Below are positions 3,600-41,884 of a stretch of 64,000 nt of DNA, in pieces (within the stretch, counting starts at the first letter, position 1; each line of letters opens with the position of its first letter). Under the pieces are notes generated by a model, which saw nothing but the letters and a program-made list of their open reading frames with translations, was not told the origin of the DNA and ran no database searches. The position numbers were made by a program, and so were the translations under genes. The DNA is taken from contig CAWGPU010000004.1 in NCBI GenBank assembly GCA_963824615.1, positions 108,852 through 172,851 of the forward strand, given 5' to 3'. Origin of the DNA: an uncultured Haloplasmataceae bacterium. GTDB taxonomy: Bacteria; Bacillota_I; Bacilli_A; Haloplasmatales; Haloplasmataceae.

Positions 3600-5400
3600 T
3601 AATATATTATAGTTGAAAATATATTGACAAATGTTTTGAATAGGTATAAAACAAATCTAGAGGTGATGAAAATGCCGCGAGGAACACAAATCATTAATGG
3701 AACTGAATATGTATATGAATATGATTCTAAATGGGATTCTAAAAAACAATATGGGACTCACAGAAGAAATTACATCGGTAAAATGGTAGATGGGATTTTT
3801 GTACCTAATAAAAATTATAAACTTAAATTCGAATTTGAGAATACAAAAAAAGCTATTGTATCGAATTTTGATGCCGATATAAAATATAAACATCGTTTCT
3901 ATGGTGCAACTTATCTATTGGATATGATTGGACAGAAACTAGGGATTATTGATGATCTTAAAAAATGTTTTCCTGATTCATACGAACAAATGCTTTCAAT
4001 TGTTTATTATCTTATAATGGAAGATTACAACTCGTTAAATCGTTTTCCTAAATGGGCATTAACACATGTTCATCCTTTTGAAAAAAACATCAACTCTATA
4101 CTATATAATGAATTACTTGGTTCAATTAATGATAAAGCAAGGTATAAATTTTTTTTACTACAAGATAAGCGGAGATTTGAAAAGGAGTATCTTGCATACG
4201 ACATTAACGCAATATCAACATTTTCAAATTCATCTAAGCAAATAAAAATTGGTTTTAATAAGGAATCGGAGTCCCTACAATACAATAATCTGATACTTCT
4301 TTTGGGAGAGGAGTCTAGGCTACCTATATATTATAATAGACTAGCGGGAAATATATCTCATGTGAAAATGATACAAAATATAATGACGGATATTGAATTC
4401 TTAAAAAAAGATAGAATTAAACTAATCATGGACCGGGGATTCTACAGTGAAGATAATATTGATGCTATCTATCAAAAACATTATAAATTTATTCTAAACG
4501 CCAAAATATCATTAAAATATATTCAGAAGAAACTCAATGAAGTGCGGAAAATTATCCTTTCTAAGACGCATTATAGTTCTAAATTTGAACTCAATTATTA
4601 TTCTTCACTGCTAGATTATAATAATATTGATATCAAGCAACATTCTGAATTTGATGAGAATAATGTTAGGAGAATGTATCTTCATATTTACTATAGCGTA
4701 GACAAAGCAGCAGAAGACAAAGCAAAGTTAAATAGCTTAATAGAAAAATTACGACAAGAATTAGTGTCAGGATATCATAAACCAGAGCACGAGAAACTAT
4801 ATGAAAAATATTTTGAAATGAATGAAAACTTAGTAAAAGGAACAATGATATCATCAAAACAGGAAGCAATTAAAACTACTGAAAAAAACTTTGGATACTT
4901 TGCTTTGATTACGAATTGTTTTAAGGAACCTTTAGAAGCGTTAGAAATATATTGGCTGAAGGATGATATTGAACACACATTTGGAAACTTTAAAGAAAGG
5001 TTAAGTATGAAAAGAAAATCTGTCTCATCCGATGAAAATTTTGATGGAAAGTTTTTTATTCAATTTATTTCGTTGATTTATCTTTCATATATCAAAAATA
5101 ACATGAATAATCATCTATTATATAAGAATTACAGCCCACAAGAAATTATAGATGAATTAGATATGATAGAGCGTTTTGAACAACCTGGAAGAAAATATCA
5201 TGTTGGAGAATTAACTAAGAAGCAAAATGACTTATATGCGATGTTTGGAGTAGAGGCTCCGAGAGAGATGAATATACAGTAAAACAAATAATAAGAATTC
5301 TAAAATGATAAGTTTAGAGAAAAATATTAAAATACTTTTTTTCTTTATAATACGTTTAAAAAAGAGTTATCTCATGTTGTAAGATAACTCTTTTTCTGGT
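3600..5400 (+). mobile_element. IS1634-family insertion sequence (boundaries approximate)
   Basis: Single transposase ORF flanked by AT-rich DNA. The terminal inverted repeats could not be defined by eye. A perfect 14-bp-stem hairpin at 5358-5395 lies near the right side. Confidence 0.45.
3666..5282 (+). CDS. IS1634-family (IS4 superfamily) DDE transposase
   Basis: ORF of ~540 aa whose N-terminus (MPRGTQIINGTEYVYEYDSKWDSKKQYGTHRRNYIGK) matches the characteristic IS1634-type transposase N-terminus, with a DDE-type C-terminus. TTGACA at 3624 lies upstream. The exact start could be 3624, 3666 or 3672. Confidence 0.7.
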   Translation: MKMPRGTQIINGTEYVYEYDSKWDSKKQYGTHRRNYIGKMVDGIFVPNKNYKLKFEFENTKKAIVSNFDADIKYKHRFYGATYLLDMIGQKLGIIDDLKKCFPDSYEQMLSIVYYLIMEDYNSLNRFPKWALTHVHPFEKNINSILYNELLGSINDKARYKFFLLQDKRRFEKEYLAYDINAISTFSNSSKQIKIGFNKESESLQYNNLILLLGEESRLPIYYNRLAGNISHVKMIQNIMTDIEFLKKDRIKLIMDRGFYSEDNIDAIYQKHYKFILNAKISLKYIQKKLNEVRKIILSKTHYSSKFELNYYSSLLDYNNIDIKQHSEFDENNVRRMYLHIYYSVDKAAEDKAKLNSLIEKLRQELVSGYHKPEHEKLYEKYFEMNENLVKGTMISSKQEAIKTTEKNFGYFALITNCFKEPLEALEIYWLKDDIEHTFGNFKERLSMKRKSVSSDENFDGKFFIQFISLIYLSYIKNNMNNHLLYKNYSPQEIIDELDMIERFEQPGRKYHVGELTKKQNDLYAMFGVEAPREMNIQ

Positions 5401-7953: not shown

Positions 7954-8865
7954 ATGGCTGATTTATTATTGATACCGAAAATGGACATCATTTTTAAAAG
8001 AATTTTTGGTGATGAAAGAAACAAAAAAATATTAATTTCACTATTAAATGCAGTGTTAGGAATAAAAAAATCCGAATTATTAGATTTAACTATTTTAAAT
8101 AATGAATTATTACCAGAATTTCAAAATGAAAAACAAGGTATTCTAGATATGAGAATAAGATTAACAAATGGGGAATTAATCAATGTAGAAATACAAATCT
8201 TTCCATACGAAAGTATGCGAGAAAGAATTATCTATTATTTATCTAGAATGTTTGTTAGTCAGATTGAAAAAGGTATAAACTATAGAGCGCTAAAAAAATG
8301 TATAAATATAACGATACTTGATTATAATTTAACAAAAGGAAATCACGTTCATAGTATTTACCACTTAAATGAGGATGAAAATGATGAAACGCTCACCGAT
8401 ATTTTAGAAATACATTTACTAGAGCTACGTAAATTCAAAAATACAAATGATGATATATTAAGTTTATGGCTACAATTTATTAAATCAACAAAAAGGGAGG
8501 AATTTGAAATGGTTAGTTTAAAAGATGAAGATATTCAAAAGGCATATGAGGTTTTAGAAGAATTAAATAGGGATCCTAAATTAAAAGAATATTATGAAAT
8601 GTTGAATAAATGGGATCATGATAGAGATTCAATGATATATGATGCTAAAACGTTAGGTTATAAAGAAGGAATAGAAAAAGGGCTTGAAACAGGAAAAGAA
8701 GAGGGTAGAGAAGAAGGGAGGAAAGAAGGAAGAGAGGAAGGAAAAAAGAAAGTGACTGAAGCCCACGCTATAAAAATGTTAAAAGCCAACATCGATTTGG
8801 AGGTTATAAGTGAAGTGACAGGCTTAAGTGTTACTGAGTTAACTTTCATAAAGGATAATACGTAA
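7954..8865 (+). CDS. Rpn-family recombination-promoting nuclease / putative transposase (PD-(D/E)XK, YhgA-like)
   Basis: The N-terminus (MADLLLIPKMDIIFKRIFGDERNKKILISLLNAVLG) is typical of the Rpn/transposase_31 family. The C-terminal KEGxE(K/E)G repeats (KEGIEKGLETGKEEGREEGRKEGREEG) are characteristic of this family. Confidence 0.65.
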   Translation: MADLLLIPKMDIIFKRIFGDERNKKILISLLNAVLGIKKSELLDLTILNNELLPEFQNEKQGILDMRIRLTNGELINVEIQIFPYESMRERIIYYLSRMFVSQIEKGINYRALKKCINITILDYNLTKGNHVHSIYHLNEDENDETLTDILEIHLLELRKFKNTNDDILSLWLQFIKSTKREEFEMVSLKDEDIQKAYEVLEELNRDPKLKEYYEMLNKWDHDRDSMIYDAKTLGYKEGIEKGLETGKEEGREEGRKEGREEGKKKVTEAHAIKMLKANIDLEVISEVTGLSVTELTFIKDNT

Positions 8866-10873: not shown

Positions 10874-11383
10874 GTGAGTTATACCACGACTAATGGTCAA
10901 CCCCAAGGATATGCGTATACCTTTATTAATAAACTAAGAGAGGCATTGATAGGTGAAATTGTTGCGATTAATGGCTATGCTAATCACATAGCTAATTCAA
11001 ACATGGAACAAATAAATGCTGCCTGGAGAAGTATCATGAAAGATGAAAAAGAACATTATGGCATGTTCTTAACATTAATTCGCAAATATGATCCTATGCA
11101 ATATAATAAATATTTAGAACATATGAACACAAAAGTCAATGTGACTTCTTTACAAACATATCAACCTGAGTATAATAAACAACTTATTCTAAATAACATT
11201 AGGGAGGATGTAAAAGGTGAACTTGAAGCAGTCATTTTATATGAACAGCTTTGGAATGAAATAACAATTGAAGACGTAAAGAATGTATTATATACAGTTA
11301 TACAAACTGAAAAAGGTCATGCTGAGCATCTAACTAGATTATTAATTAATTTTGATCCAGATAAATATGACGGTCTTACATAA
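10874..11383 (+). CDS. ferritin-like superfamily protein (possible CotJC/manganese-catalase-like)
   Basis: GTG start with a GGAGGTG RBS. GEIVAINGYANH...IMKDEKEH resembles the GEL-A---Y and EE--H metal-ligand helices of ferritin-like/CotJC proteins. Its 3' 110 bp is duplicated at 18072-18190. Confidence 0.35.
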   Translation: MSYTTTNGQPQGYAYTFINKLREALIGEIVAINGYANHIANSNMEQINAAWRSIMKDEKEHYGMFLTLIRKYDPMQYNKYLEHMNTKVNVTSLQTYQPEYNKQLILNNIREDVKGELEAVILYEQLWNEITIEDVKNVLYTVIQTEKGHAEHLTRLLINFDPDKYDGLT

Positions 11384-12018
11384 TTAGCGATGCTCATGAT
11401 ACTGATGTTGGAAGATAGCTAGTGGATATTTTTTCATGAGTCGAAAAGACTCATCATTTAAATTTTGAATAGAAATGTTAAAAGGGACTGAATAATTAAT
11501 AATCAGTCCCTTTTCAATTATATTTTACTTATTTATTTCTAAATTTTTATAGCTTTTAAGAAAGAATGCTAGTAAAAACCCAATTATTGAAAGTCCCGTT
11601 AGTAACCAAATAGAATCATGGAAACCATTTACCATAGCTTGTGAAACTTGAGTCTGCATGGCAACAGGTAAATCTGAAATTTTAATGATTGATTTTTGCC
11701 AATACTTGTTATATGAAATTGTGTAAGAACTGGCGTAAGGTGAAACACTTCGCGTGCTTGGAAATAAGATACAACTACACGTTTTGGTAGTTTATTACTT
11801 AATGCGGTTCCAAGTCACGTAACGACACTTTGAGGAAATAAAGCGAGACCAGTCACCAGTACTGTCTGTATTTTTTGCATGAAGACGGGAATTAGAACTA
11901 ACATAGAAAACATGATGACCGCAGCTAACGTACAGATAAGTATTGAGATTGCCGCATTTGAACTTTTAAGTAATCTTAAGTTTACTACAGAGTGTTTACG
12001 ATTGTAACTCCATATAAT
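11262..12018. repeat. direct repeat copy A (~90% identical to 18072-19078, with a ~250-bp internal deletion)
   Basis: By-eye alignment: 11262-11520 matches 18072-18330, and 11520-12018 matches 18330-19078 minus about 18565-18815. Confidence 0.8.
11520..12018 (-). pseudogene. decayed 3' fragment of an MFS (DHA2-type) efflux transporter gene, paralogous to 18321-19829
   Basis: Nucleotide identity to the C-terminal 250 codons of the intact MFS gene. There is no intact ORF, and internal deletions and indels are present. Confidence 0.7.
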
Positions 12019-12236
12019 ATTAATTTATGATAACTACTTTGACAAACAACGACCTAAATTATAAAACAGGTTGGCATTTTCATAAACAAATATCGACAAA
12101 AGTATGCTAATAATTAAGTTAATTACTTATTATGTATAATTTACTGCATCGAATTTTGCAAAAGAATGCCGATTACATTGAAAATTACTAAAAGCCGAAT
12201 TATGATTATGTTAATAAGATGAGAGGAGGATATTTT

Positions 12237-12359
12237 ATGACATCAATTAATTACTATGCTTTCAATCTAAAAAGTCATTTGAGAAGTGTTTGGTTTGTTG
12301 TTTTAATTCCTATTTTATTAATTCTTGGGGTAAGAAACAGTTATAAAAAATATACCTAA
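12237..12359 (+). CDS. small hydrophobic protein (40 aa, MTSINYYAFNLKSHLRSVWFVVLIPILLILGVRNSYKKYT)
   Basis: Strong RBS GAGAGGAGGA 7 nt upstream. It has a single predicted TM helix and lies immediately 5' of IS607 tnpA. Confidence 0.3.
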   Translation: MTSINYYAFNLKSHLRSVWFVVLIPILLILGVRNSYKKYT

Positions 12360-12381
12360 ATCTATCTAAATATGAATATAA

Positions 12382-13020
12382 ATGAATAGAATTGGGGAAA
12401 TTAATATTGAGGTGGTCAATATTAAAATATCAATAAATAAAGCCAGTGAAATAGTTGGTGTGTCAATTAATACATTGAGAAGGTGGGAAAAAGAAGGGAA
12501 AATTACATCTGAACGAACAAAAGGAGGACATAGACGTTACGATAATAACTCCTTATTGGGATTAATAAACAAAGGGAATGAAAAACTTAGTATCGCATAC
12601 TGTAGAGTATCATCATTTGATCAAAAAGATGATTTAATAAGACAGATTAACACGGTATCAGAATATTGTATTGCTAGAGGATATCAATTTAGGATTATAC
12701 AAGATTTAGGTAGTGGACTGAATTATAATAAAAAAGGATTAAAAGAACTAATAGAATTAATATGCAGCCAAAGAATCAATCGAATCATCATCAATTATAA
12801 AGATAGGCTAATAAGATATGGATATGAAATCATAGAAAATATATGTGAGCTAAACGGTGTTAAAATCGAAATCATTAATCATACAGAAGATAAAACATAT
12901 GAACAGGAATTAGTAGAGGATGTATTATCTATTATTACAGTTTTTTCTTCAAAATTATATGGAAGTAGAAGCCATAAAATAAAAAAAATCAAAGAGGAAT
13001 TTATAAAACTAATGAAATAA
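12382..13020 (+). CDS. tnpA: IS607-family TnpA: MerR-type HTH fused to a serine recombinase (resolvase) catalytic domain
   Basis: The N-terminus (ASEIVGVSINTLRRWEKEGKI) is a MerR-like HTH. IAYCRVSSFDQKDDLIRQ contains the catalytic Ser of serine recombinases. The size (~200 aa) and the position upstream of tnpB fit IS607. Confidence 0.8.
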   Translation: MNRIGEINIEVVNIKISINKASEIVGVSINTLRRWEKEGKITSERTKGGHRRYDNNSLLGLINKGNEKLSIAYCRVSSFDQKDDLIRQINTVSEYCIARGYQFRIIQDLGSGLNYNKKGLKELIELICSQRINRIIINYKDRLIRYGYEIIENICELNGVKIEIINHTEDKTYEQELVEDVLSIITVFSSKLYGSRSHKIKKIKEEFIKLMK

Positions 13021-13124
13021 AGAGTTAATATGGAAGATAATATTAACTTTTTTAAATATATCAATCATTATTCATTGATAATCAAACAAATGTTTGCTAT
13101 AATGTATATAGGGGAGGTGGTAAT

Positions 13125-14360
13125 ATGATATTTAATAGAAGCGTTGAAATTACTTTTAATAAAAAAGATCAATTGATATTAGATGGTCAAAGTAAAATAT
13201 GTAACTGGTTATATAATCATTTATTAGAGATGGTTAAAAGTGATAAGGTATCCGGATTATTAGAAGGTAGAAATTTACGAAATGAAATACCAAAACTTAA
13301 ACTAGAAAAACCATTTTTAAAAAGTGTTTATTCATCACCATTAAAAAATGTAGCTTTTAGATTAATGTCAACATTTAATGGCTTTTTTAATTATGATAGA
13401 GGGTTTCCTAAGTTTAAATCTTGGAAAGTCAAATGGTTTTCTTTATTTTATGATGAACCTAACAAAGGATATAAAATAATCAATAATAAAGAAATACAGA
13501 TAAATTTAGGAAAAGATAAAGATAATAGACGATTAAAAGTAAATGGCTTATTAAATGAGTCATTACATTTAAAAGAAACCGATCAAATAAAGAATTTTAG
13601 AATCTGTAAAAAACGAAGAAAATTTTATGGCATATTCTGTATAGAGCGAATTGATATTGTCCCAAAACATGTGAACAGTTTTTTATCAATTGACCCTAAC
13701 CATAAGAATTTCTTTGTAGGAATTAATAATAAAGGTGAAAGTATCGAATTTGAGAAAATAACACAAATTCAATATTTTGATAAAGTAATCGATGAAATTA
13801 AATCAAAAAGAGATAGATGTAAAAAAGGTTCGAAAAGGTGGAAAAGATTAAATAGAGTAATAGATAAAACATATCACAAAAAACAAGAACAGATAAAGTC
13901 AATGTGTTATTGTGTATCTAATTATATAGCGAGAAACTATGATTGTGTATTAATAGGTGATTATACTCCTAGTTTAGAAACCGCAAAATACGAAACGATG
14001 CATCGGAGTATGTTAAACCAAACAATCATAGGAAAATTTAGAACGATATTAGAATGGGTGATGATAAGAAGTGGAAAACAATTTAAGTTAGTAGATGAAC
14101 ATGAAACAACGAAAGTATGTTCTATATGTGGTCATAGTGAAAAGAAGAATCCATCGATAAGAGAATTTGTTTGTCGCAATTGTGGGCGACATTTAAATCG
14201 AGATATTAATAGTAGTATAAATATCGCTAAAAAAGGAAATATATTGTCTGACTCGGACTTTGTTAAATGGGAATTATCTCATGTAACATATACTGCAAAA
14301 TGGGATTATAGGAAATCTAGAATCTTATTTACAGGCTATGCATCTAAAAAAGCTGCATAG
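13125..14360 (+). CDS. tnpB: TnpB (OrfB_IS605 RuvC-like RNA-guided endonuclease) with C-terminal zinc finger
   Basis: 411 aa. The C-terminal zinc finger reads CSICGH...CRNCGRHLNRDINSSINIAKKG, and a RuvC-like D...E...D arrangement is present. GGGGAGGTGGTAATATG RBS. This is the canonical TnpB architecture. Confidence 0.85.
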   Translation: MIFNRSVEITFNKKDQLILDGQSKICNWLYNHLLEMVKSDKVSGLLEGRNLRNEIPKLKLEKPFLKSVYSSPLKNVAFRLMSTFNGFFNYDRGFPKFKSWKVKWFSLFYDEPNKGYKIINNKEIQINLGKDKDNRRLKVNGLLNESLHLKETDQIKNFRICKKRRKFYGIFCIERIDIVPKHVNSFLSIDPNHKNFFVGINNKGESIEFEKITQIQYFDKVIDEIKSKRDRCKKGSKRWKRLNRVIDKTYHKKQEQIKSMCYCVSNYIARNYDCVLIGDYTPSLETAKYETMHRSMLNQTIIGKFRTILEWVMIRSGKQFKLVDEHETTKVCSICGHSEKKNPSIREFVCRNCGRHLNRDINSSINIAKKGNILSDSDFVKWELSHVTYTAKWDYRKSRILFTGYASKKAA

Positions 14361-14560
14361 ATGAATTAAATCAAAGATAGGAAAATCTTTGAGCAAAATC
14401 TACCTAATGTTAGATTTTAGACAGATTTAGTTAGATTTTGTAGAGCGGCTACTTGGCTTATTGGAATGTCAATTTACTGTCTTACCCAAGGTTATACAGG
14501 ATTTGTAGGTTCATGGAAGATTGTCAACTGGGGTCTTAGTATTAAATTTAACTGCATTTA
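14200..14560 (+). ncRNA. predicted TnpB-associated omega-RNA (reRNA) scaffold overlapping the 3' end of tnpB and extending downstream
   Basis: Established knowledge: omega-RNAs derive from the tnpB 3' end plus the right element end. A GC-richer structured stretch (gtagagcggctacttggcttattgg...ggttcatggaagattgtcaactggggtc) follows the stop. No structure was computed. Confidence 0.35.
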
Positions 14561-14651
14561 GTTTTGAAATTTTTGCTTATGAAGCACATAATATTATGTG
14601 TTTCATAATTATTAAATGTACTAATGTTAATTAGATGGGAGAATTTTTGGT

Positions 14652-15404
14652 ATGTTAGAGAAAATAATTACCAGCACAAGTATAATTTTTCCAAATAATG
14701 TTTGTATTGAAAATGGTTATATTTACGATAAAACAACTGACTTGAGATTAGATGTTAATACACTAAAATTTAGTAAAATAAATGATTTAGAAAAACAATT
14801 AAATGGTTTTCTATTAATTAACCTTGTTGAAAAAAATATTGTATTTAAGATATTGAAAAGTCTGATACCTTTGGGATGTAATTACAGATATTCAATAGAT
14901 GAAAATAGACATCTTGCTTATAAATTAATATATTTGTTTAAATTAATGTTTAAACAAACTTTAGTTATTCTAGTGTTTATTTTAATGGTAGTCAATCTAT
15001 TGTTTTTATATGTTGATTTAAGTTATTATCTCTTTATTTTGAAGAATTTTGCTATTATTTATATTAATATTTTGTTATCTATATATTTACATGAAACAGG
15101 ACATTTAATTAAAACTTTCATTAAAAAAGAAAAATCTGATGTTATTTTTTCTGGGTTTTCTCTGTCTGTGCTAATTTCTAATAAAATGAAAGACGACTTC
15201 TTGACTTTATTTTTAGGACCATTTATACCAGTGATTATAGGTTTATGCATGTTGATAATTTCAAATAATCGTCATATAGGGAACAACCTAGAAATAAATT
15301 TATATTTTATATCTTTTATATACTTAGTCCACTTCATAAATTTTTTCCCCTTTACAACCGATGGAAGAAATATGTTCAAATATCAATTTAAGAAGAATCC
15401 ATAG
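14652..15404 (+). CDS. membrane protein with intramembrane HExxH motif (putative metalloprotease-like, M50/CPBP-type)
   Basis: The C-terminal half is polytopic. YLHETGHLIK (HETGH) is embedded in a hydrophobic segment. The N-terminal ~100 aa are soluble. Confidence 0.35.
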   Translation: MLEKIITSTSIIFPNNVCIENGYIYDKTTDLRLDVNTLKFSKINDLEKQLNGFLLINLVEKNIVFKILKSLIPLGCNYRYSIDENRHLAYKLIYLFKLMFKQTLVILVFILMVVNLLFLYVDLSYYLFILKNFAIIYINILLSIYLHETGHLIKTFIKKEKSDVIFSGFSLSVLISNKMKDDFLTLFLGPFIPVIIGLCMLIISNNRHIGNNLEINLYFISFIYLVHFINFFPFTTDGRNMFKYQFKKNP

Positions 15405-15413
15405 GAGGAAATA

Positions 15414-16142
15414 ATGATTGAAATTAAAAATCTAACAAAAAAATTCAAAAACAAAATTGCAGTAAATGACGCTTCCCTTGAAATTAAAAACGGGAAAATA
15501 ACGGGGATTATTGGTCCTAATGGATGTGGGAAAACAACGCTAATTAATTGTTTACTTGATATTTATAAATATGATGGATCAATTACATACGATAAAACTG
15601 ATCTTATAAATAAATTATTTGCATATGTACCCGATGAATTATTACTCCCTAATAAATTAACTGGAAAAGAATATACGCAATTTATTCTCTCTCTTTATGG
15701 AATTAAGGATTCAAATAAGTTAGACAAGCTTCTGTTGTTATATGATATGAAAAATTGTTTTAATAACTTAATCGATACCTATTCATTTGGAATGAAAAAA
15801 AAGTTACAACTAATCTGTGCTTTTTCATTAAACTGTCCATATATTGTTTTAGATGAACCTTTTAGAGGACTTGATATAGAATCCATACTTATTACCAAAA
15901 AACTTATCACTATGTTTATTGGTCTTGGTCTTGGTATTTTTATATCATCACATGAACTTTATAGTATGGAAACCATGTGTGATTCTGTTATCATTATGAG
16001 TGAAGGAAAAGTTTTGATGCAAGGGAAGCCTAAAGATTTATTTAAAGAGTACGAAGTAGATAGCTTAGAAGTTCTTTTTGTAGAAAAGGCCGTATCAGTG
16101 ACTAGAAGGGAATTAATAGATGAAATCATTACAGATTTTTAA
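15414..16142 (+). CDS. ABC transporter ATP-binding protein
   Basis: Walker A GPNGCGKTT, signature-like SFGMKKKLQL and Walker B IVLDEP. GGAGGAAATAATG RBS. Confidence 0.75.
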   Translation: MIEIKNLTKKFKNKIAVNDASLEIKNGKITGIIGPNGCGKTTLINCLLDIYKYDGSITYDKTDLINKLFAYVPDELLLPNKLTGKEYTQFILSLYGIKDSNKLDKLLLLYDMKNCFNNLIDTYSFGMKKKLQLICAFSLNCPYIVLDEPFRGLDIESILITKKLITMFIGLGLGIFISSHELYSMETMCDSVIIMSEGKVLMQGKPKDLFKEYEVDSLEVLFVEKAVSVTRRELIDEIITDF

Positions 16143-17571
16143 ATACATTGTAAAACTTTGGTTTTCAGAGATTACTTCACTCTTAAACAACTCGGCTAAA
16201 AAATTAATAGCATTGTTTTCATTGGTCTTTTTTATTGGAGCGTTTAGTTATTTATCATTTATTTTTATGGGTAAATTTTTCTCAATTTTGTTTGAACTAA
16301 ATGACAAATCTCTATTTGATAACATGTTTTACTCGGAAAGTCTATTTATTTCTCTTATAGTTTTTGCAATTTACATATTTATTAAAACCATTACAAGTGA
16401 TCAAAATATGTTAGATTGGCAACTTTGTTGGATGCCTGTAGCCAAAAATCAAGTTCTCATAGCATATTATTTACTTCATTATTTGCTCATTAGCATTATA
16501 TCCATATTATTAGTGGTGCTAATCTATTTCCCTTCATTTATATACTATGGTGGACTTTCCTTTATATTGGTTCAATTAATAGCCAACGGATTATTGCAGA
16601 CATTAATTATGTTTATTTTGTTTACTGCAATATATAATTCATTGTATTTTATTTTTAACATAATTAAACTTGCCGGTGCCAAATATGTTTCATCACTTAT
16701 TTTAATTATTCTATTTGTAGTTTATATAGTTACTAGTATCGATATTTTTGGATTTAAGCCAGAAAATAATATTTTATCTTATTCGTCTTTTTTATTTTAT
16801 AAAAATTTATCTTATGGCAATATAAATATGATTTTTATAGGAATGGTCATATTGTTACTATTGGTTTTATTTGGTTTTTCATTATTTTCAAAAGGTAATA
16901 ATCACTATGCTAGTAATTCAATAGATATTTTAAAAGCTGTTCCAGTGAGCAAAAATTATATAATTAATATATTTATTCTTCAATTAAAATATATGATTAG
17001 GAATATAGAAATTTTAATTAATCTAGTTCTCACTTTCATCATTTTGATAGCATCTTTTTTTATTGAAAATATTATACCTGTGTATATCCTGCTGTTAATG
17101 TTTTATGCATTCTCCACTGCAATGCATGCGATGTATAGTTATGGAAATGAAAGAAAATTTGATTATGTATACAAACTGGCAAATAAGGACAATATAAAAA
17201 TCAATATTTATAGGTTGTTATCATGCACTATATTAACAGTAATTCTGTTTATGATTTATTATCTACTTACATTTAGACATTACTATTTTATACAAACATT
17301 TATATTAGGTATTAGTTTAGCAATTGGTTCATCAATCATACTCTATGCAATTGGGATGATTGTAGTTGTAGAATATGAAAAACCACTAAATTCATTTATT
17401 TCCATTATATTATTTATTTTTATTTCTTGTATTTATTTTAGTTTAAATTATTTTTTATTTACTAAAGTTAGTTTTGCTACATATAGTTTAGCTAATATAA
17501 TTTTATTAATCATATTATTTGATTTTTTTATACTTGCTACAAATAATAAAATGAAGGAGTTGAAATTATGA
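16120..17571 (+). CDS. polytopic membrane protein (putative permease partner of the preceding ABC ATPase)
   Basis: 483 aa with >10 hydrophobic helices, overlapping the ATPase stop. No family motif seen. Confidence 0.45.
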   Translation: MKSLQIFKYIVKLWFSEITSLLNNSAKKLIALFSLVFFIGAFSYLSFIFMGKFFSILFELNDKSLFDNMFYSESLFISLIVFAIYIFIKTITSDQNMLDWQLCWMPVAKNQVLIAYYLLHYLLISIISILLVVLIYFPSFIYYGGLSFILVQLIANGLLQTLIMFILFTAIYNSLYFIFNIIKLAGAKYVSSLILIILFVVYIVTSIDIFGFKPENNILSYSSFLFYKNLSYGNINMIFIGMVILLLLVLFGFSLFSKGNNHYASNSIDILKAVPVSKNYIINIFILQLKYMIRNIEILINLVLTFIILIASFFIENIIPVYILLLMFYAFSTAMHAMYSYGNERKFDYVYKLANKDNIKINIYRLLSCTILTVILFMIYYLLTFRHYYFIQTFILGISLAIGSSIILYAIGMIVVVEYEKPLNSFISIILFIFISCIYFSLNYFLFTKVSFATYSLANIILLIILFDFFILATNNKMKELKL

Positions 17572-17852
17572 GTAAAATAAAGAATCTACTCCCTATTGCT
17601 TCAATTATTTTTATCATCTGGTTTCCTATAACTGTAACGATTGTCTATTTTTCAAATTTATTTTCAAATAACTCAGGAAAGATATTTTTCAATACTATCG
17701 AGTTAAATATAGTTGGAGGTACAGTGTCTACAAATTTTTCAATAAACATTCTTTATGTATTATTGATTGGGTATCTGTTGAATTTTATTTTTATTTTTTT
17801 ATTATATTCAATTTTTTCAAAAACAAGAAAAGATACAGTTGAAGCAAATTAA
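17568..17852 (+). CDS. small membrane protein (94 aa)
   Basis: ATGA overlap with the preceding ORF, and a GGAGTTGAAATTATG RBS. Two predicted TM helices. Confidence 0.3.
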   Translation: MSKIKNLLPIASIIFIIWFPITVTIVYFSNLFSNNSGKIFFNTIELNIVGGTVSTNFSINILYVLLIGYLLNFIFIFLLYSIFSKTRKDTVEAN

Positions 17853-18071
17853 TTTATATAATTATACTTAATAGGAAATTTTGAAATAGATGAAAATGCA
17901 AACGTGCTAAGATAAAGATACATATATTTATAAAGGATATTATGAGTATTTGTCAAATAAAGAAAAAATGAACTCTTGTGTCATTATTGTAGTAAAAAAT
18001 CAATTTCCATTTATTTCTATTTTAGATTCTATTATTGAAAATCACATGTTAAGTTTCATATTTTGGATTTA

Positions 18072-19078
18072 ATTGAAGATGTGTAGAATGTATTATATAC
18101 AGTTATACAAACTGAAAAAGGTCATGCTGAGCATCTAACTAGATTATTAATTAATTTTGATCCAGATAAATATGACGGTCTTACATAATTAGCGATACTC
18201 ATGATAGCGAGGTTGGAAGAATATTTTTTTCATGAGTCGAAAAGACTCATCATTTAAATTTTTAATAGAAATATTAAAAGGGACTGAATAATTAATAATC
18301 AGTCCCTTTTCAATTATATTTTACTTATTTATTTCTAAACTTTTATGGCTTTTAAGAAAAAATGCTAGTAAAAATCCGATTATTGAAAGTCCTGTTAGTA
18401 ACCAAATAGAATCATGGAAACCATTTACCATAGCTTGTGAAACTTGAGCCTGCATGGCAACAGGTAAATCTGAAATTTTAACTGTTGAGTTATGGCCAAT
18501 ACTTGTTATATGAAATTGTTTAAGAACTGGCGTAAGGTGAAACAATTCCCGTGTTTGAAAGTAGGCTACTAGAATTGCTATTCCTACCGCACCGCCAATT
18601 CGTTGCGCGATATTAAATAATGTGTTTCCATCGGTTGTTTCGTGAGATGGCAAACTACCTATTAATTCCATTAATAATGGTTGAATAACAAGACCAACCG
18701 CAAATCCTCGTATAATGAGTAAAGCGGATATTTCCCAAACTGACGTATGATAGTCAACTAATTGTAAACATACCGTACCTAACATGACTAAAAACATTCC
18801 TAGGATTACTGTTTTGCGTATACCTACACGCTTTGGTAATTTATTACCTAATATGGTACCAAGCCCTGTGACGATACTTTGAGGAAATAAAGCAAGTCCA
18901 GTCACCAGTACTGAATGTTCCTGTATTTTTTGCATGAAGACGGGAATTAGAACTAACATAGAAAACATGATAACCGCAGCTAAGGTACAGATGAGTATTG
19001 AGATTGCCGCATTTGAACTTTTTAGTAATCTTAAGTTTACTACAGGGTGTTTACGATTGTAACTCCATATAATATAAA
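18072..19078. repeat. direct repeat copy B (the intact version of 11262-12018)
   Basis: Contains a 110-bp 3' fragment of the ferritin-like gene, the shared bidirectional terminator and the 3' ~750 bp of the intact MFS gene. Confidence 0.8.
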
Positions 19079-19829
19079 TCAATATTAAAAGAGCTCCACT
19101 TGCCCAGTAAGGCCAGGCTTGTAATGATAACCCACCATGAAGCGGAATATTAGATGTTCCAAATGTTAGTAATGCAAGTCCACCAGATAAAAATAATAAA
19201 CCAAGCGGATCAAACTTAACATCCTTACTACCTTTTGTATAAAAGGTATGAGGTATCTTTAAAGTCGCAATAAAACCTATGATACCGATAGGTACGTTAA
19301 TCCAGAATATTAATTGCCATCCTGAAATTTGAATTAATAATCCTCCTATTGTTGGACCTAAAGCAGGAGCTAAGAAAAGGACAATCCCCATCAGTGGCGA
19401 AATAGTATTAAAAATATCACTATCTTTTTCCTTTTTACCACCTAGTAACATTTCCATTGCTAGAGGTAGCATTGGTGCTCCAAACATTCCTTGTAAAATT
19501 CTGGCGACTAGAAGCATTTCGAAATTATTTGATATGGCACATAAAATAGAACCCACCGTGAATCCTACCATACTGATTAAATAAATCCGTAAGGTACCAA
19601 AACGTTTTGCCAAATAAGCACTCGCAGCAAGTACTGCAGCTAAGGCTAAAAGATAACCAGAAATAATCCATTGCATTGTCGTTTCAGATCTATTCAACTG
19701 AAGTGCAATGTTTGGTAACGCCACAGTGACGATATTTGAATCCATCATAGTTAAAAATGGTCCCATTAGTAGTCCTATTTGTGCGATAAGAGTTAGTCGA
19801 TTAATATTTTTTCCATTTTTTTGTTTCAT
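18321..19829 (-). CDS. MFS transporter, DHA2 (14-TMS) drug:H+ antiporter type
   Basis: 502 aa with about 14 hydrophobic segments and MFS motifs (GxLaDRfGrr-like LAKRFGTLRIY). It is divergent from the MarR gene. Confidence 0.75.
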   Translation of the reverse strand: MKQKNGKNINRLTLIAQIGLLMGPFLTMMDSNIVTVALPNIALQLNRSETTMQWIISGYLLALAAVLAASAYLAKRFGTLRIYLISMVGFTVGSILCAISNNFEMLLVARILQGMFGAPMLPLAMEMLLGGKKEKDSDIFNTISPLMGIVLFLAPALGPTIGGLLIQISGWQLIFWINVPIGIIGFIATLKIPHTFYTKGSKDVKFDPLGLLFLSGGLALLTFGTSNIPLHGGLSLQAWPYWASGALLILIYIIWSYNRKHPVVNLRLLKSSNAAISILICTLAAVIMFSMLVLIPVFMQKIQEHSVLVTGLALFPQSIVTGLGTILGNKLPKRVGIRKTVILGMFLVMLGTVCLQLVDYHTSVWEISALLIIRGFAVGLVIQPLLMELIGSLPSHETTDGNTLFNIAQRIGGAVGIAILVAYFQTRELFHLTPVLKQFHITSIGHNSTVKISDLPVAMQAQVSQAMVNGFHDSIWLLTGLSIIGFLLAFFLKSHKSLEINK

Positions 19830-20239: not shown

Positions 20240-20689
20240 TTGGATTTTAAAGACGAAGAATTTTTAAAAAAGTTTATTATTGACAGTGTTCGTATTATCA
20301 ACCACACAGCTAATAATTTTGTGAAAGCTGAAATTGCTAGGGGGGGTCTTACAACACCACAAATAAATGTGTTGATGGAATTAGTATCCTTTGATGGATT
20401 ATCAGTTAAAGAGTTAAGTCAAAGACTAAATTTATCCCATAGTACTGTATCGGGAATTATTGATAGATTAGAATCTCGTGAATTTGTAGAGCGGAAACAA
20501 GACTCAAACGATGGTCGGTATACACGAATATATTTGTCTGCTCGCGTTAATGATTATGTTAAAAACAATTTAATCCAAAGATACACTCCTTTTATTGATG
20601 CCATGTATAAAGCAACTCCAGATGAAAGGATAAAGATTATTGAAGGCTTCTCTATTCTTAGTAGATTATTAAAAGAATCAGGTAATTAG
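20240..20689 (+). CDS. MarR-family transcriptional regulator
   Basis: Winged-helix region LSVKELSQRLNLSHSTVSGIIDRLESREFVERKQDSNDGR. 149 aa, divergent to the MFS efflux gene. Confidence 0.8.
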   Translation: MDFKDEEFLKKFIIDSVRIINHTANNFVKAEIARGGLTTPQINVLMELVSFDGLSVKELSQRLNLSHSTVSGIIDRLESREFVERKQDSNDGRYTRIYLSARVNDYVKNNLIQRYTPFIDAMYKATPDERIKIIEGFSILSRLLKESGN

Positions 20690-41722: not shown

Positions 41723-41884
41723 CAAATAAAAAAAAGATGATTGAGGGAATCATCAAAATAAAAAAAAAGATGATTGAGGGAATCATCAAAATAAAAAAAA
41801 AGATGATTGAGGGAATCATCGGAATAAAAAAAAGATGATTGAGGGAATCATCGGAATAAAAAAAAGATGATTCCTTGAATCACC
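41723..41884. repeat. tandem array of five ~33-bp units, each a 7-bp-stem hairpin (GATGATT-GAGGG-AATCATC) with an A9 or T9 run
   Basis: Four perfect copies and one degenerate copy. The spacers are identical (AAAATAAAAAAAAA or GGAATAAAAAAAA). On the minus strand each unit reads as hairpin plus T9. Confidence 0.85.

Follow-up and report, generated by a model that had tools for sequence, protein, structure and literature searches.

A 6-kb peptide/protease/ABC insert between direct repeats of convergent ferritin-like and MFS 3′ ends: a probable insertion-duplication by recombination

A duplicated segment flanks the insert

In the window, the 64-kb stretch of DNA analyzed here, a segment of 1.0 kb that covers the convergent 3′ ends of a ferritin-like gene and an MFS efflux gene is present in two direct copies (A and B), with a peptide/protease/ABC module at their joint. 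The features are as follows:

10874–11383, plus strand: intact ferritin-like gene (169 aa; Rubrerythrin/EncFtn-like), its last 118 bp within copy A
11266–12024: repeat copy A (759 bp); functional ferritin-like 3′ end, terminator spacer, and decayed MFS 3′ fragment
11436–11454 and 11480–11514: terminator hairpins of copy A, the second bidirectional (AAAAGGGACTGA...TCAGTCCCTTTT), from a hairpin scan and the sequence
11525–12024, minus strand: MFS pseudogene fragment, corresponding to codons 251–502 of the intact gene
12025–18070, plus strand: insert (6046 bp); a 3928-bp peptide/protease/ABC module with a nested 2118-bp IS607-family element
12025–12236, plus strand: native upstream (leader) region of the module, by similarity to L018
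12237–12330, plus strand: 5′ part of the gene for a 68-aa precursor-like peptide, split by the IS607-family element
12331–14448, plus strand: IS607-family element (2118 bp; position ambiguous by a shared GG)
12348–12369 and 14396–14438: subterminal motif AAATCTAYCTAA at the ends of the element
12382–13020, plus strand: tnpA, within the element
13125–14360, plus strand: tnpB, within the element
14449–14561, plus strand: 3′ part of the peptide gene, ending in …ATWLIGMSIYCLTQGYTGFVGSWKIVNWGLSIKFNCI and a stop
14652–15404, plus strand: HExxH membrane protein; degenerate PqqD/RRE N terminus and M50B/site-2-protease-like domain
15414–16142, plus strand: ABC ATPase; DrrA/lantibiotic-protection/PSM-export-like, below equivalog cut-offs
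16120–17571, plus strand: polytopic permease, matching no Pfam or NCBIfam family
17568–17852, plus strand: 94-aa membrane protein, the conserved last gene in related modules
17853–18070: tail, 218 bp between the module and copy B
18071–19079: repeat copy B (1009 bp); dead ferritin-like 3′ fragment, terminator spacer, and 3′ half of the intact MFS gene
18071–18188, plus strand: truncated ferritin-like 3′ fragment, with an in-frame TAG at 18083–18085
18232–18250 and 18276–18310: equivalent terminator hairpins of copy B
18321–19829, minus strand: intact DHA2-family MFS efflux gene (502 aa), divergent from a MarR gene (20240–20689)

The ferritin-like protein scored 93.8 against the EncB family (cut-off, 90). 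The MFS protein gave a full-length family match to TIGR00711 (297.8; cut-off, 230.2; residues 15 to 492), and its alignments to homologues reach 97 to 100% coverage. The pairing of MFS and MarR genes is also found in L019.

A repeat search of the window returned five collinear direct-repeat blocks between the copies, two at 95% (11266–11415/18071–18220 and 11429–11698/18225–18494) and three further ones, covering 11677–11772, 11770–11869, and 11866–12033 of A, at 82 to 94%. Self-BLAST of the window aligned 11266–11772 with 18071–18569 (91.9%, E = 0) and 11775–12024 with 18824–19079 (89.8%, E = 3e-95), and no other repeat was present in the 64 kb except a short tandem array (41724–41872). The repeat boundaries lie at 11266/18071 on the left and 12024/19079 on the right (±4). 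The gapped alignment of the two copies contains 50 substitutions over 749 nt (93.3% identity). Three stretches of B are missing from A, namely, 252 bp (18570–18821 of B), 6 bp (18914–18919), and 1 bp (18489), and the spacers differ by a 10-bp indel (11416–11425 of A) plus a 1-bp indel. Divergence is uneven along the repeat, ranging from 2.5 to 15% (chi-square, p = 0.0045); the longest exact run measures 112 nt (18085–18196 equals 11280–11391 without a mismatch) and the second longest 66 nt (11478–11543).

These data support the observations in a preliminary description of the locus and part of its interpretation. Its ~90% identical repeat (11262–12018 against 18072–19078) is correct to within a few bases, with 93% identity over 749 nt, and the collinear blocks display the extended identity that it expected of a dot plot. 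The bidirectional terminator that it described as shared is retained as hairpins in both copies, the ferritin-like gene at A and the MFS gene at B are intact as proposed, and the IS607 and HExxH/ABC genes lie inside the bracket. The direct repeats around the 6046-bp insert also bear out its proposal of a duplication or insertion, with about 6 kb now separating two copies of the ferritin 3′ end, terminator, and MFS 3′ part. Its ferritin remnant in B is indeed only a 3′ end, although it measures 118 rather than 110 bp.

Such a layout could also be produced during assembly, if two strain variants, or a chromosome and a circle with a homologous kilobase, were threaded through shared k-mers. Threading a circle into the chromosome would give this arrangement, and the copies do share a 112-nt exact run. 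However, each of the two joints has a unique sequence, which an actual molecule must have contained, and the exact runs of 112 and 66 nt are shorter than the usual final k of 127 to 141. Moreover, the contig crosses a 2.1-kb IS whose proteins recur on a second contig, which suggests long reads or unambiguous paths, and gene and family annotation of the insert revealed no replication gene. We consider an artefact quite improbable.

Truncation and limited decay of the inner gene copies

Both outer genes are whole, and their inner copies break off precisely where the repeat ends, a pattern that fits an insertion-duplication. The preliminary description had interpreted the incomplete inner copies as reciprocal decay or complementary degeneration of the two genes. 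This does not hold, because the inner ferritin and MFS pieces end precisely at the repeat boundaries; thus, the duplicated segment never held whole genes, and the truncations represent the geometry of the duplication, that is, its end points, and not decay.

Decay as such is limited to deletions, a TGA, and deviant residues in the MFS fragment of A and to one TAG in the ferritin fragment of B. The MFS fragment, which had been rightly described as a decaying pseudogene, carries the three deletions (252, 6, and 1 bp), a frameshift, a TGA at codon G322, and residues that deviate at Y252, P262, G328, and G336. At the positions invariant or nearly invariant among 49 homologues where the copies differ, A is the deviant one in five of five, which shows that its MFS fragment decayed in place. 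Within the first 14 nt of the ferritin fragment of B lie three substitutions, and one of these produced the TAG; the 112-nt exact run follows.

The IS607-family element is an independent insertion

IS607-family elements make no target duplications and use GG crossover sites (PMC6188088). In the window, TnpA comprises Pfam MerR (17–53) and Resolvase (71–200) domains and reached 217.1 bits against NCBIfam transpos_IS607 (cut-off, 110); the transposase is 66 to 68% identical at the nucleotide level to annotated IS607-family transposases. TnpB scored 148.7 against NCBIfam guided_TnpB (cut-off, 100) and also matched Pfam Cas12f1-like_TNB and OrfB_IS605. An omega-RNA family search at the element detected none, and the fold is not distinctive. 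Allowing at most one mismatch, the 12-mer AAATCTAYCTAA has two matches at the left end, three at the right end, and only two more elsewhere in the 64 kb. Both junctions carry GG (12329–12330 and 14447–14448), and the tips lack terminal inverted repeats (1 of 10 and 6 of 20 bases shared). A TnpA with an N-terminal MerR-type HTH and a serine-recombinase domain, the presence of tnpB, short subterminal repeats, GG junctions, no target duplication, and a length of ~2.1 kb are all common to this element and IS607/IS1535 (PMC6188088). We see no essential difference between them; the element in the window is a passenger that splits the peptide gene of the cargo and did not give rise to the 1-kb repeats.

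When exactly 2118 bp are removed in silico, the best of nine GG/GG combinations, a conserved 68-aa ORF reappears and no bases are left duplicated. Spanning the junction, the restored peptide is 44 and 41% identical to 70-aa peptides of the Bacillus gobiensis and Desmospora modules, respectively, and the ORF score rises to 47.8 bits as compared to 21 bits when interrupted. The ends of the element sit 305 bp and 3.6 kb inside the insert. Because these ends are internal, the family leaves no target duplication, and removal restores the peptide gene, the element is an independent insertion into the cargo. The earlier suggestion that it was placed there with the cluster, and the idea that it had a role in forming the bracket, are therefore not supported.

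A related scenario is that TnpA, perhaps together with TnpB/omega-RNA cutting, moved the whole 6-kb segment and produced the flanking repeats. TnpA is the sole recombinase in the insert, but this scenario is extremely improbable given the lack of target duplications and the GG crossover sites of the family (PMC6188088) and the repair of a gene by excision of the exact 2118-bp unit. In addition, the subterminal motif clusters only at 12348–12369 and 14396–14438, and 14-mers of the presumed guide region match the repeats zero times. The joints of the insert bear no mobile-element ends: inverted repeats are absent, and the IS607 motif comes no closer than 300 bp to them. We likewise rejected transposon ends at 12025/18070, where neither inverted repeats nor transposase-binding motifs are found, and a transposon target-site duplication (2 to 15 bp), since the repeats are 0.76 to 1.0 kb long and 7% diverged.

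The module and its relation to RRE-S2P peptide clusters

Judged by its sequence, the module without the IS is a very rare five-gene set, predicted to encode a membrane-anchored two-Cys peptide, an RRE/S2P-like HExxH protease, an ABC ATPase, a permease, and the 94-aa membrane protein. The permease has one close homologue among 5.8 billion proteins. The module recurs at L018 with 78% nucleotide identity in another context, and it is found in three other Bacillota genomes, in every case without flanking duplications. Similarity to L018 includes the upstream region, which 12082–12208 resembles with a score of 27 versus 15 ± 2.4 (0 of 300 shuffles reached it), and stops at 17821, within the 94-aa gene. 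The GC3 of the insert (0.20) equals that of the host (0.213 ± 0.029), and thus, composition gives no sign of foreign origin.

Eep and PptAB typify pheromone processing and export. The pattern of RRE-S2P clusters, in which a PqqD/RRE-fused M50/S2P membrane protease adjoins a short precursor ORF, holds here at the family level: P0134, P0135, and P0139 exceeded the cut-off for PqqD and P0137 that for M50B, HExxH and GP...D are invariant in the protease family, the best Foldseek matches are S2P (3b4r) and SpoIVFB (8vjm), and the 68- to 70-aa ORF is conserved across related modules. The HExxH protein of the window is itself subthreshold (M50B 17.8 versus a cut-off of 26; RRE with a 32-aa gap).

Daptide BGCs are peptide clusters with an RRE-fused intramembrane site-2 protease, defined by an ELExMEAP motif in the precursor, a C-terminal Thr, and Dmp-forming enzymes (bioRxiv 10.1101/2023.03.08.531785). 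Like these BGCs and Eep/PptAB-type systems, the module combines an RRE-fused M50/S2P-like protease with a short precursor ORF and an ABC exporter. In contrast to daptide BGCs, it has no decarboxylase, aminotransferase, or methyltransferase genes, and its precursor is a membrane-anchored two-Cys peptide rather than an ELExMEAP...Thr peptide. We rejected daptide membership, as the precursor ends in ...NCI and lacks ELExMEAP, and the Dmp-forming enzymes are absent. The gene order also differs from that of the Desmospora and B. gobiensis clusters.

Origin of the structure

The structure is an old, one-off insertion-duplication by recombination and not a transposon footprint; the event is of a known kind, an ordinary genome rearrangement. 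Campbell insertion-duplication is the integration, by a single crossover, of a circle that does not replicate and that carries an internal piece of the target. Such integration is the "insertion-duplication" of the laboratory, and in nature, it occurs as episome integration via homologous recombination. We tentatively favor, with a confidence just short of even, an origin by single-crossover (Campbell-type) integration of a circle, or of a linear fragment anchored by homology, that came from a close relative. The incoming DNA would have consisted of the module joined to ~1 kb of the ferritin/MFS 3′ region, and one homologous crossover within that 1 kb would generate whole ferritin and truncated MFS, the module, then truncated ferritin and whole MFS. 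The two illegitimate joints (12024/12025 and 18070/18071) would have arisen when the incoming DNA formed. Gene conversion would then have run patchily from copy to copy, and the dead fragment would have acquired its deletions. The IS607 element entered the peptide gene in a separate event. RecA recombination between the repeats could still remove the insert plus one repeat copy, returning the ancestral locus.

The direct repeats of the homology segment, whole outer genes, truncated inner copies, and reversibility by homologous recombination all resemble Campbell cases. Unlike them, the locus has no vector functions, its copies are 7% diverged, the circle is hypothetical, and the homology segment covers two convergent 3′ ends, leaving both genes undisrupted. 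In homology-facilitated illegitimate recombination (PMC3240628), a homologous anchor and an illegitimate joint bring in foreign DNA. This could account for the ferritin-fragment joint and the restored intact MFS gene. However, with a linear fragment, this process normally replaces or deletes recipient DNA, whereas here, a duplication and two illegitimate joints are present. Because the module is found elsewhere without flanking duplications, we counted it as portable, in favor of the insertion route. No donor, circle, or empty site was found, the best match among genome contigs being 29% and the next best in the protein database 52%, with no close relative among metagenome contigs.

A substantial possibility, though one we somewhat doubt, is that the structure arose in situ in one event in this lineage, as a tandem duplication that took up the module at its joint, by unequal sister-chromosome end joining with filler DNA or by two replication template switches. 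The event would have linked the module to MFS codon ~251 on one side and to ferritin codon ~131 on the other, producing initially identical 1-kb copies; all of the 7% divergence would then be later, neutral in the dead pieces and constrained in the live ones, with partial gene conversion. The end topology is identical to that of the Campbell route, which requires as many illegitimate joints and thus has no parsimony advantage. A short TTAATT microhomology at both joints and the host-like GC3 of the module are also compatible with an in situ event.

The coding substitutions bear on both routes. Overall dN/dS between A and B is ~0.36, with 20.5 synonymous and 18.5 non-synonymous changes, while the in situ decay model expects 56 to 60% non-synonymous. 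If ~17 non-synonymous changes were neutral hits in the A lineage, about 13.6 synonymous differences would be expected rather than 20.5. The ratio and the synonymous excess hint at a pre-diverged allele, but the selection test did not reject in situ duplication (P = 0.09 to 0.15), A is deviant at every polarizable conserved residue, and non-synonymous changes fall alike on conserved and variable sites. As they show no enrichment at variable sites (P = 0.33), most may be post-insertion decay. The uneven divergence and the 112-nt identical run fit later gene conversion. Against in situ formation, identical 1-kb direct repeats should readily lose the insert via RecA unless the module is selected, and a pre-diverged repeat would be less prone to such loss. 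Furthermore, the module proteins of this genome are each recorded on one contig, with no record of a second copy.

Cargo between direct repeats with intact target genes would also suit a site-specific integrative island whose duplicated segment is the attachment site, in the manner of elements with a spare 3′ end of their target gene. We regard this as very unlikely: there is no integrase at either edge, the only recombinase being the IS607 TnpA with its internal ends, and the repeats are ~1 kb long and 7% diverged, in place of a short identical core, with the 112-nt run lying inside the diverged repeat. Integration at an intergenic terminator would need no spare gene ends on both sides, and the other loci of the module lack such repeats.

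Possible wider role

An unlikely but wider reading is that the bracketed unit is an integrase-less, homology-targeted cassette, a self-propagating "natural insertion-duplication vector," whose cargo would represent an undescribed class of membrane-anchored two-Cys peptides, released by an RRE-fused S2P and exported by a dedicated ABC transporter. If so, recombination between the repeats by host RecA would release a ~6.8-kb circle made of the cargo and one of the repeats, and a single crossover at the ferritin/MFS terminator would bring it back into naive relatives, with both genes left unharmed.

The main value of the locus is as a worked example. Truncated inner gene copies around an island can reflect insertion-duplication geometry and not necessarily "reciprocal decay," and an IS inside an island is not necessarily its mover. 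The structure predicts that a peptide-export module can be gained and lost reversibly, through RecA, at a convergent terminator. A side result, perhaps the more useful one, is that base-exact IS607 boundaries, set by the restored 68-aa gene, expose a very rare module.

Direct repeats flank the insert in an insertion-duplication geometry

A repeat search of the window linked 11266-12033 to 18071-19088 by five collinear direct-repeat blocks. Self-BLAST of the window recovered two blocks, 11266-11772 against 18071-18569 (91.9%, E=0) and 11775-12024 against 18824-19079 (89.8%, E=3e-95), and the gapped alignment of copy A (11266-12024) with copy B (18071-19079) contained 50 substitutions in 749 aligned nucleotides (93.3% identity). 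The repeats claimed in the preliminary description are thus real. Both limits are sharp, the left one at 11266/18071 and the right one at 12024/19079 (±4). Copy A has deletions of 252, 6, and 1 bp, the largest corresponding to B 18570-18821, and the spacer of the repeats carries one 10-bp and one 1-bp indel. Besides this pair, the search of the 64 kb found only a short tandem array, an intergenic 33-bp unit repeated 4.6 times at 41724-41872 with 96% matches. Its unit consists of a GATGATT-GAGGG-AATCATC hairpin and then an A/T run, and as such resembles terminators in tandem.

The repeats involve the following genes:

10874-11383, + strand, intact ferritin-like gene, 169 aa (Pfam Rubrerythrin/EncFtn-like)
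11525-12024, MFS fragment of copy A, equal to codons 251-502
18321-19829, - strand, full-length DHA2 MFS efflux gene (TIGR00711, 297.8 vs. cut-off 230.2)

The final 118 bp of the ferritin-like gene fall within copy A, and the same 118 bp form the ferritin fragment of copy B, which is cut at the repeat boundary and has an in-frame TAG at 18083-18085. The full-length MFS gene covers 97-100% of its homologues in a protein database comparison and has a divergent MarR gene as its partner, an arrangement shared with a distant relative. Two terminator hairpins are retained in each copy. With the cargo in the middle, both outer genes remain complete and both inner pieces stop precisely where the repeats do. 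This is the geometry of an insertion-duplication, which bears out the event proposed from the sequence alone, and the bracket is a new instance of a known event type. The accompanying proposal of reciprocal gene decay holds only in part: most of it is geometric truncation at the repeat ends, but the MFS fragment of copy A has indeed decayed, with a frameshift, an in-frame TGA, and three deletions.

The product of the ferritin-like gene scored 93.8 bits against the NCBIfam EncB family (cut-off 90), which places it by score among the EncB-family cargo ferritins of encapsulins, here with both half-domains in a single chain; no encapsulin shell gene was found among its annotated immediate neighbors. 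The neighborhood of the repeat is rich in mobile-element genes; within 8 kb upstream lie genes for an IS1634-family transposase (3624-5282) and an Rpn-family recombination-promoting nuclease (7954-8865).

The IS607 element is a passenger within the cargo

The 6046 bp separating the copies (12025-18070) are a composite of an IS607-family element and a 3928-bp module of peptide, protease, and ABC transporter genes. A domain search identified a MerR HTH and a resolvase domain in TnpA, which scored 217 bits against the NCBIfam IS607 transposase model (cut-off 110), and TnpB scored 149 (NCBIfam cut-off 100). Members of the IS607 family have subterminal repeats and no terminal inverted repeats, generate no target duplication, and recombine at GG (PMC6188088). 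In agreement with the subterminal repeats described there, the 12-mer AAATCTAYCTAA is clustered at 12348-12369 and 14396-14438 only, and comparison of the element tips revealed no inverted repeats.

A short ORF starting at 12237 reads into the left IS end. We removed the element in silico by joining the sequence that ends with each GG at 12327-12330 to the post-GG sequence at 14447, 14455, or 14463, which gave nine reconstructions. The one lacking 2118 bp (12331-14448) yielded a 68-aa ORF, MTSINYYAFNLKSHLRSVWFVVLIPILLILG before the junction and ATWLIGMSIYCLTQGYTGFVGSWKIVNWGLSIKFNCI after it. This ORF aligns over the junction with 70-aa peptides from two related clusters (44% and 41% identity), with which it shares a WF.V.I..LL.LGAT..G motif and two conserved Cys. 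It scored 47.8 bits with one gap, as compared to 21 bits for the interrupted ORF and 38-40 bits with 4-7 gaps for the remaining in-frame GG reconstructions. Because the restored ORF aligns across the junction, the IS is 2118 bp long, GG-flanked, and without target duplication, and 12025-12330 is native module DNA. The latter is further supported by the similarity of 12082-12208 to the region immediately upstream of the module on contig L018 (score 27 vs. 15 ± 2.4 in shuffles). In this genome, IS607 has inactivated the module.

The IS ends sit 305 bp and 3.6 kb from the two joints; thus, the element did not make the bracket. IS607-mediated mobilization was also rejected, as its defining features were lacking, and a TnpB guide tested against the repeats gave no match. 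The exact TnpA and TnpB sequences (12382-14360; proteins P0121, P0122, and P0123) are also recorded on a second contig, indicating that the element is multi-copy, and a TnpB of the same 90%-identity cluster (380 aa) was found on a 1.49-Mb contig. The element has probably been active of late, in this genome or a related one. No omega-RNA or other RNA family was detected at Rfam gathering thresholds, and the RNA fold downstream of tnpB was not distinctive (z=-0.74). A weak similarity between 12126-12313 and 14535-14729 was dismissed as AT-driven. Defence-system models returned generic ATPase matches only.

The cargo is a very rare five-gene module

Of the by-products, the cargo holds the most interest: it is a module that is very seldom encountered and that combines a membrane-anchored two-Cys peptide and an ABC exporter with an S2P-like protease fused to an RRE. 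The peptide gene aside, its four genes at 14652-17852 encode the HExxH membrane protein, whose motif residues are H147, E148, and H151, the ABC ATPase, a permease of 483 aa, and a membrane protein of 94 aa. The module loci are:

window, 12237-12330 + 14449-14561 and 14652-17852
L021, 3480-7224
L023, 464-4465
L018, 908-3934

The permease had one close homologue among 5.8 billion proteins, encoded on the 4-kb contig L018, where the same module (78% nucleotide identity) adjoins a hemerythrin gene and is without IS, ferritin gene, or MFS gene. At E<1e-3, a search of 1.84 billion representatives turned up just nine relatives of the HExxH protein. Those more distant have an M50B-like domain and, at the N terminus, a PqqD/RRE domain above the Pfam cut-off. 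An AlphaFold model of the HExxH protein (pLDDT 77) had the site-2 protease 3b4r and SpoIVFB as its best PDB matches. In Desmospora profundinema and Bacillus gobiensis, the HExxH protein has as neighbors both an ABC ATPase and a permease, along with a ~90-aa protein and a small ORF of 70 aa. Beyond this genome, the module was seen in no more than one Logan contig, in Desmospora, Bacillus gobiensis, and Croceifilum, and in two metagenome records, one each from JGI and Logan.

The module peptide (68-70 aa) has a central transmembrane helix and a ~25-residue C-terminal tail bounded by the two conserved Cys; the other parts are a PqqD/RRE-fused S2P-like HExxH protease, an ABC ATPase, a family-less permease, and a ~90-aa membrane protein. 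Our search found no published description of this five-gene module. The daptide RRE-S2P clusters (bioRxiv 10.1101/2023.03.08.531785) are related in architecture but distinct, the likeness being confined to the protease architecture. The window HExxH protein (14652-15404) has a 32-aa gap in its RRE-like N terminus relative to distant relatives, while that of L018 (L018:1030-1521) lacks the N terminus and the peptide gene is absent altogether. Thus, both module copies in this lineage may be degenerating.

Divergence of the copies and origin of the bracket

The other module loci have no flanking duplications, and the bracket is thus peculiar to this locus rather than a property of the module. For the same reason, and as its defining features were not found, site-specific integration was rejected; the insert ends carry no inverted repeats. 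Among 185,579 species representatives, no MFS match exceeded 29% identity, and the next MFS in a large protein database was 52% identical, with no ferritin gene in its context. Two metagenome DNA scans, for the IS-free junction and the shared terminator, gave no match.

Two routes to the bracket were weighed. In the first, circular DNA in which the module was joined to about 1 kb of a close relative's ferritin/MFS 3' region would have integrated by a single (Campbell-type) crossover; as a variant, a linear fragment would have been anchored by homology (HFIR, as defined in PMC3240628). In the second, an in-situ event involving sister chromosomes or a switching replication fork would have linked the module on one side to MFS codon ~251 and on the other to ferritin codon ~131. 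Either route requires two illegitimate joints, and microhomology at both joints is trivial (TTAATT).

In the intact-MFS frame, the copies differ over 162 codons by 20.5 synonymous and 18.5 non-synonymous changes (overall omega about 0.36), with 26 transitions to 13 transversions in the MFS part. A naive count of these changes hinted at a foreign allele. However, at kappa=4, neutral evolution would make 71.5% of the changes non-synonymous, and a model with copy A neutral and copy B constrained, which predicts 56-60%, was not rejected (P=0.09-0.15). dN/dS was abandoned as a discriminator. Polarization against 49 homologues showed copy A to be deviant at each of the five residues that are invariant or nearly so and differ between the copies (Y252N, P262S, G322*, G328S, and G336V), and non-synonymous differences were not enriched at variable positions (P=0.33), so a large share of the divergence at the protein level reflects in-place decay. 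For prior divergence, the modest synonymous excess gives only a hint. This excess speaks against the in-situ event, as does the expectation that new, identical 1-kb repeats would readily lose the insert through RecA recombination. On these two arguments, neither of them strong, we tentatively and slightly favor Campbell-type integration, and regard in-situ formation as possible and somewhat less likely.

Divergence is uneven along the repeats (chi-square p=0.0045): the ferritin part shows 2.5%, the spacer 4.6%, and the MFS part, along its length, 6.0, 12.5, 15.2, and 4.4%, with the peak adjoining the 252-bp deletion. Patchy gene conversion, blocked locally by that deletion, would be the simplest explanation. 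One tract of 112 nt (11280-11391 and 18085-18196) is perfectly identical, with the remainder of the repeats 5-15% diverged, and the three differences of the ferritin part all lie within 14 nt beside the joint, which suggests gene conversion or junction-associated mutation. That these 112 nt are the longest exact run common to the copies, that both joints are unique sequences, and that the contig runs through a multi-copy IS make an assembly artefact very improbable. Last, the GC dip was ruled out as a sign of foreign DNA, since the insert genes have the same GC3 as the host (0.20 vs. 0.213 ± 0.029 in the window); the dip reflects membrane-protein composition.
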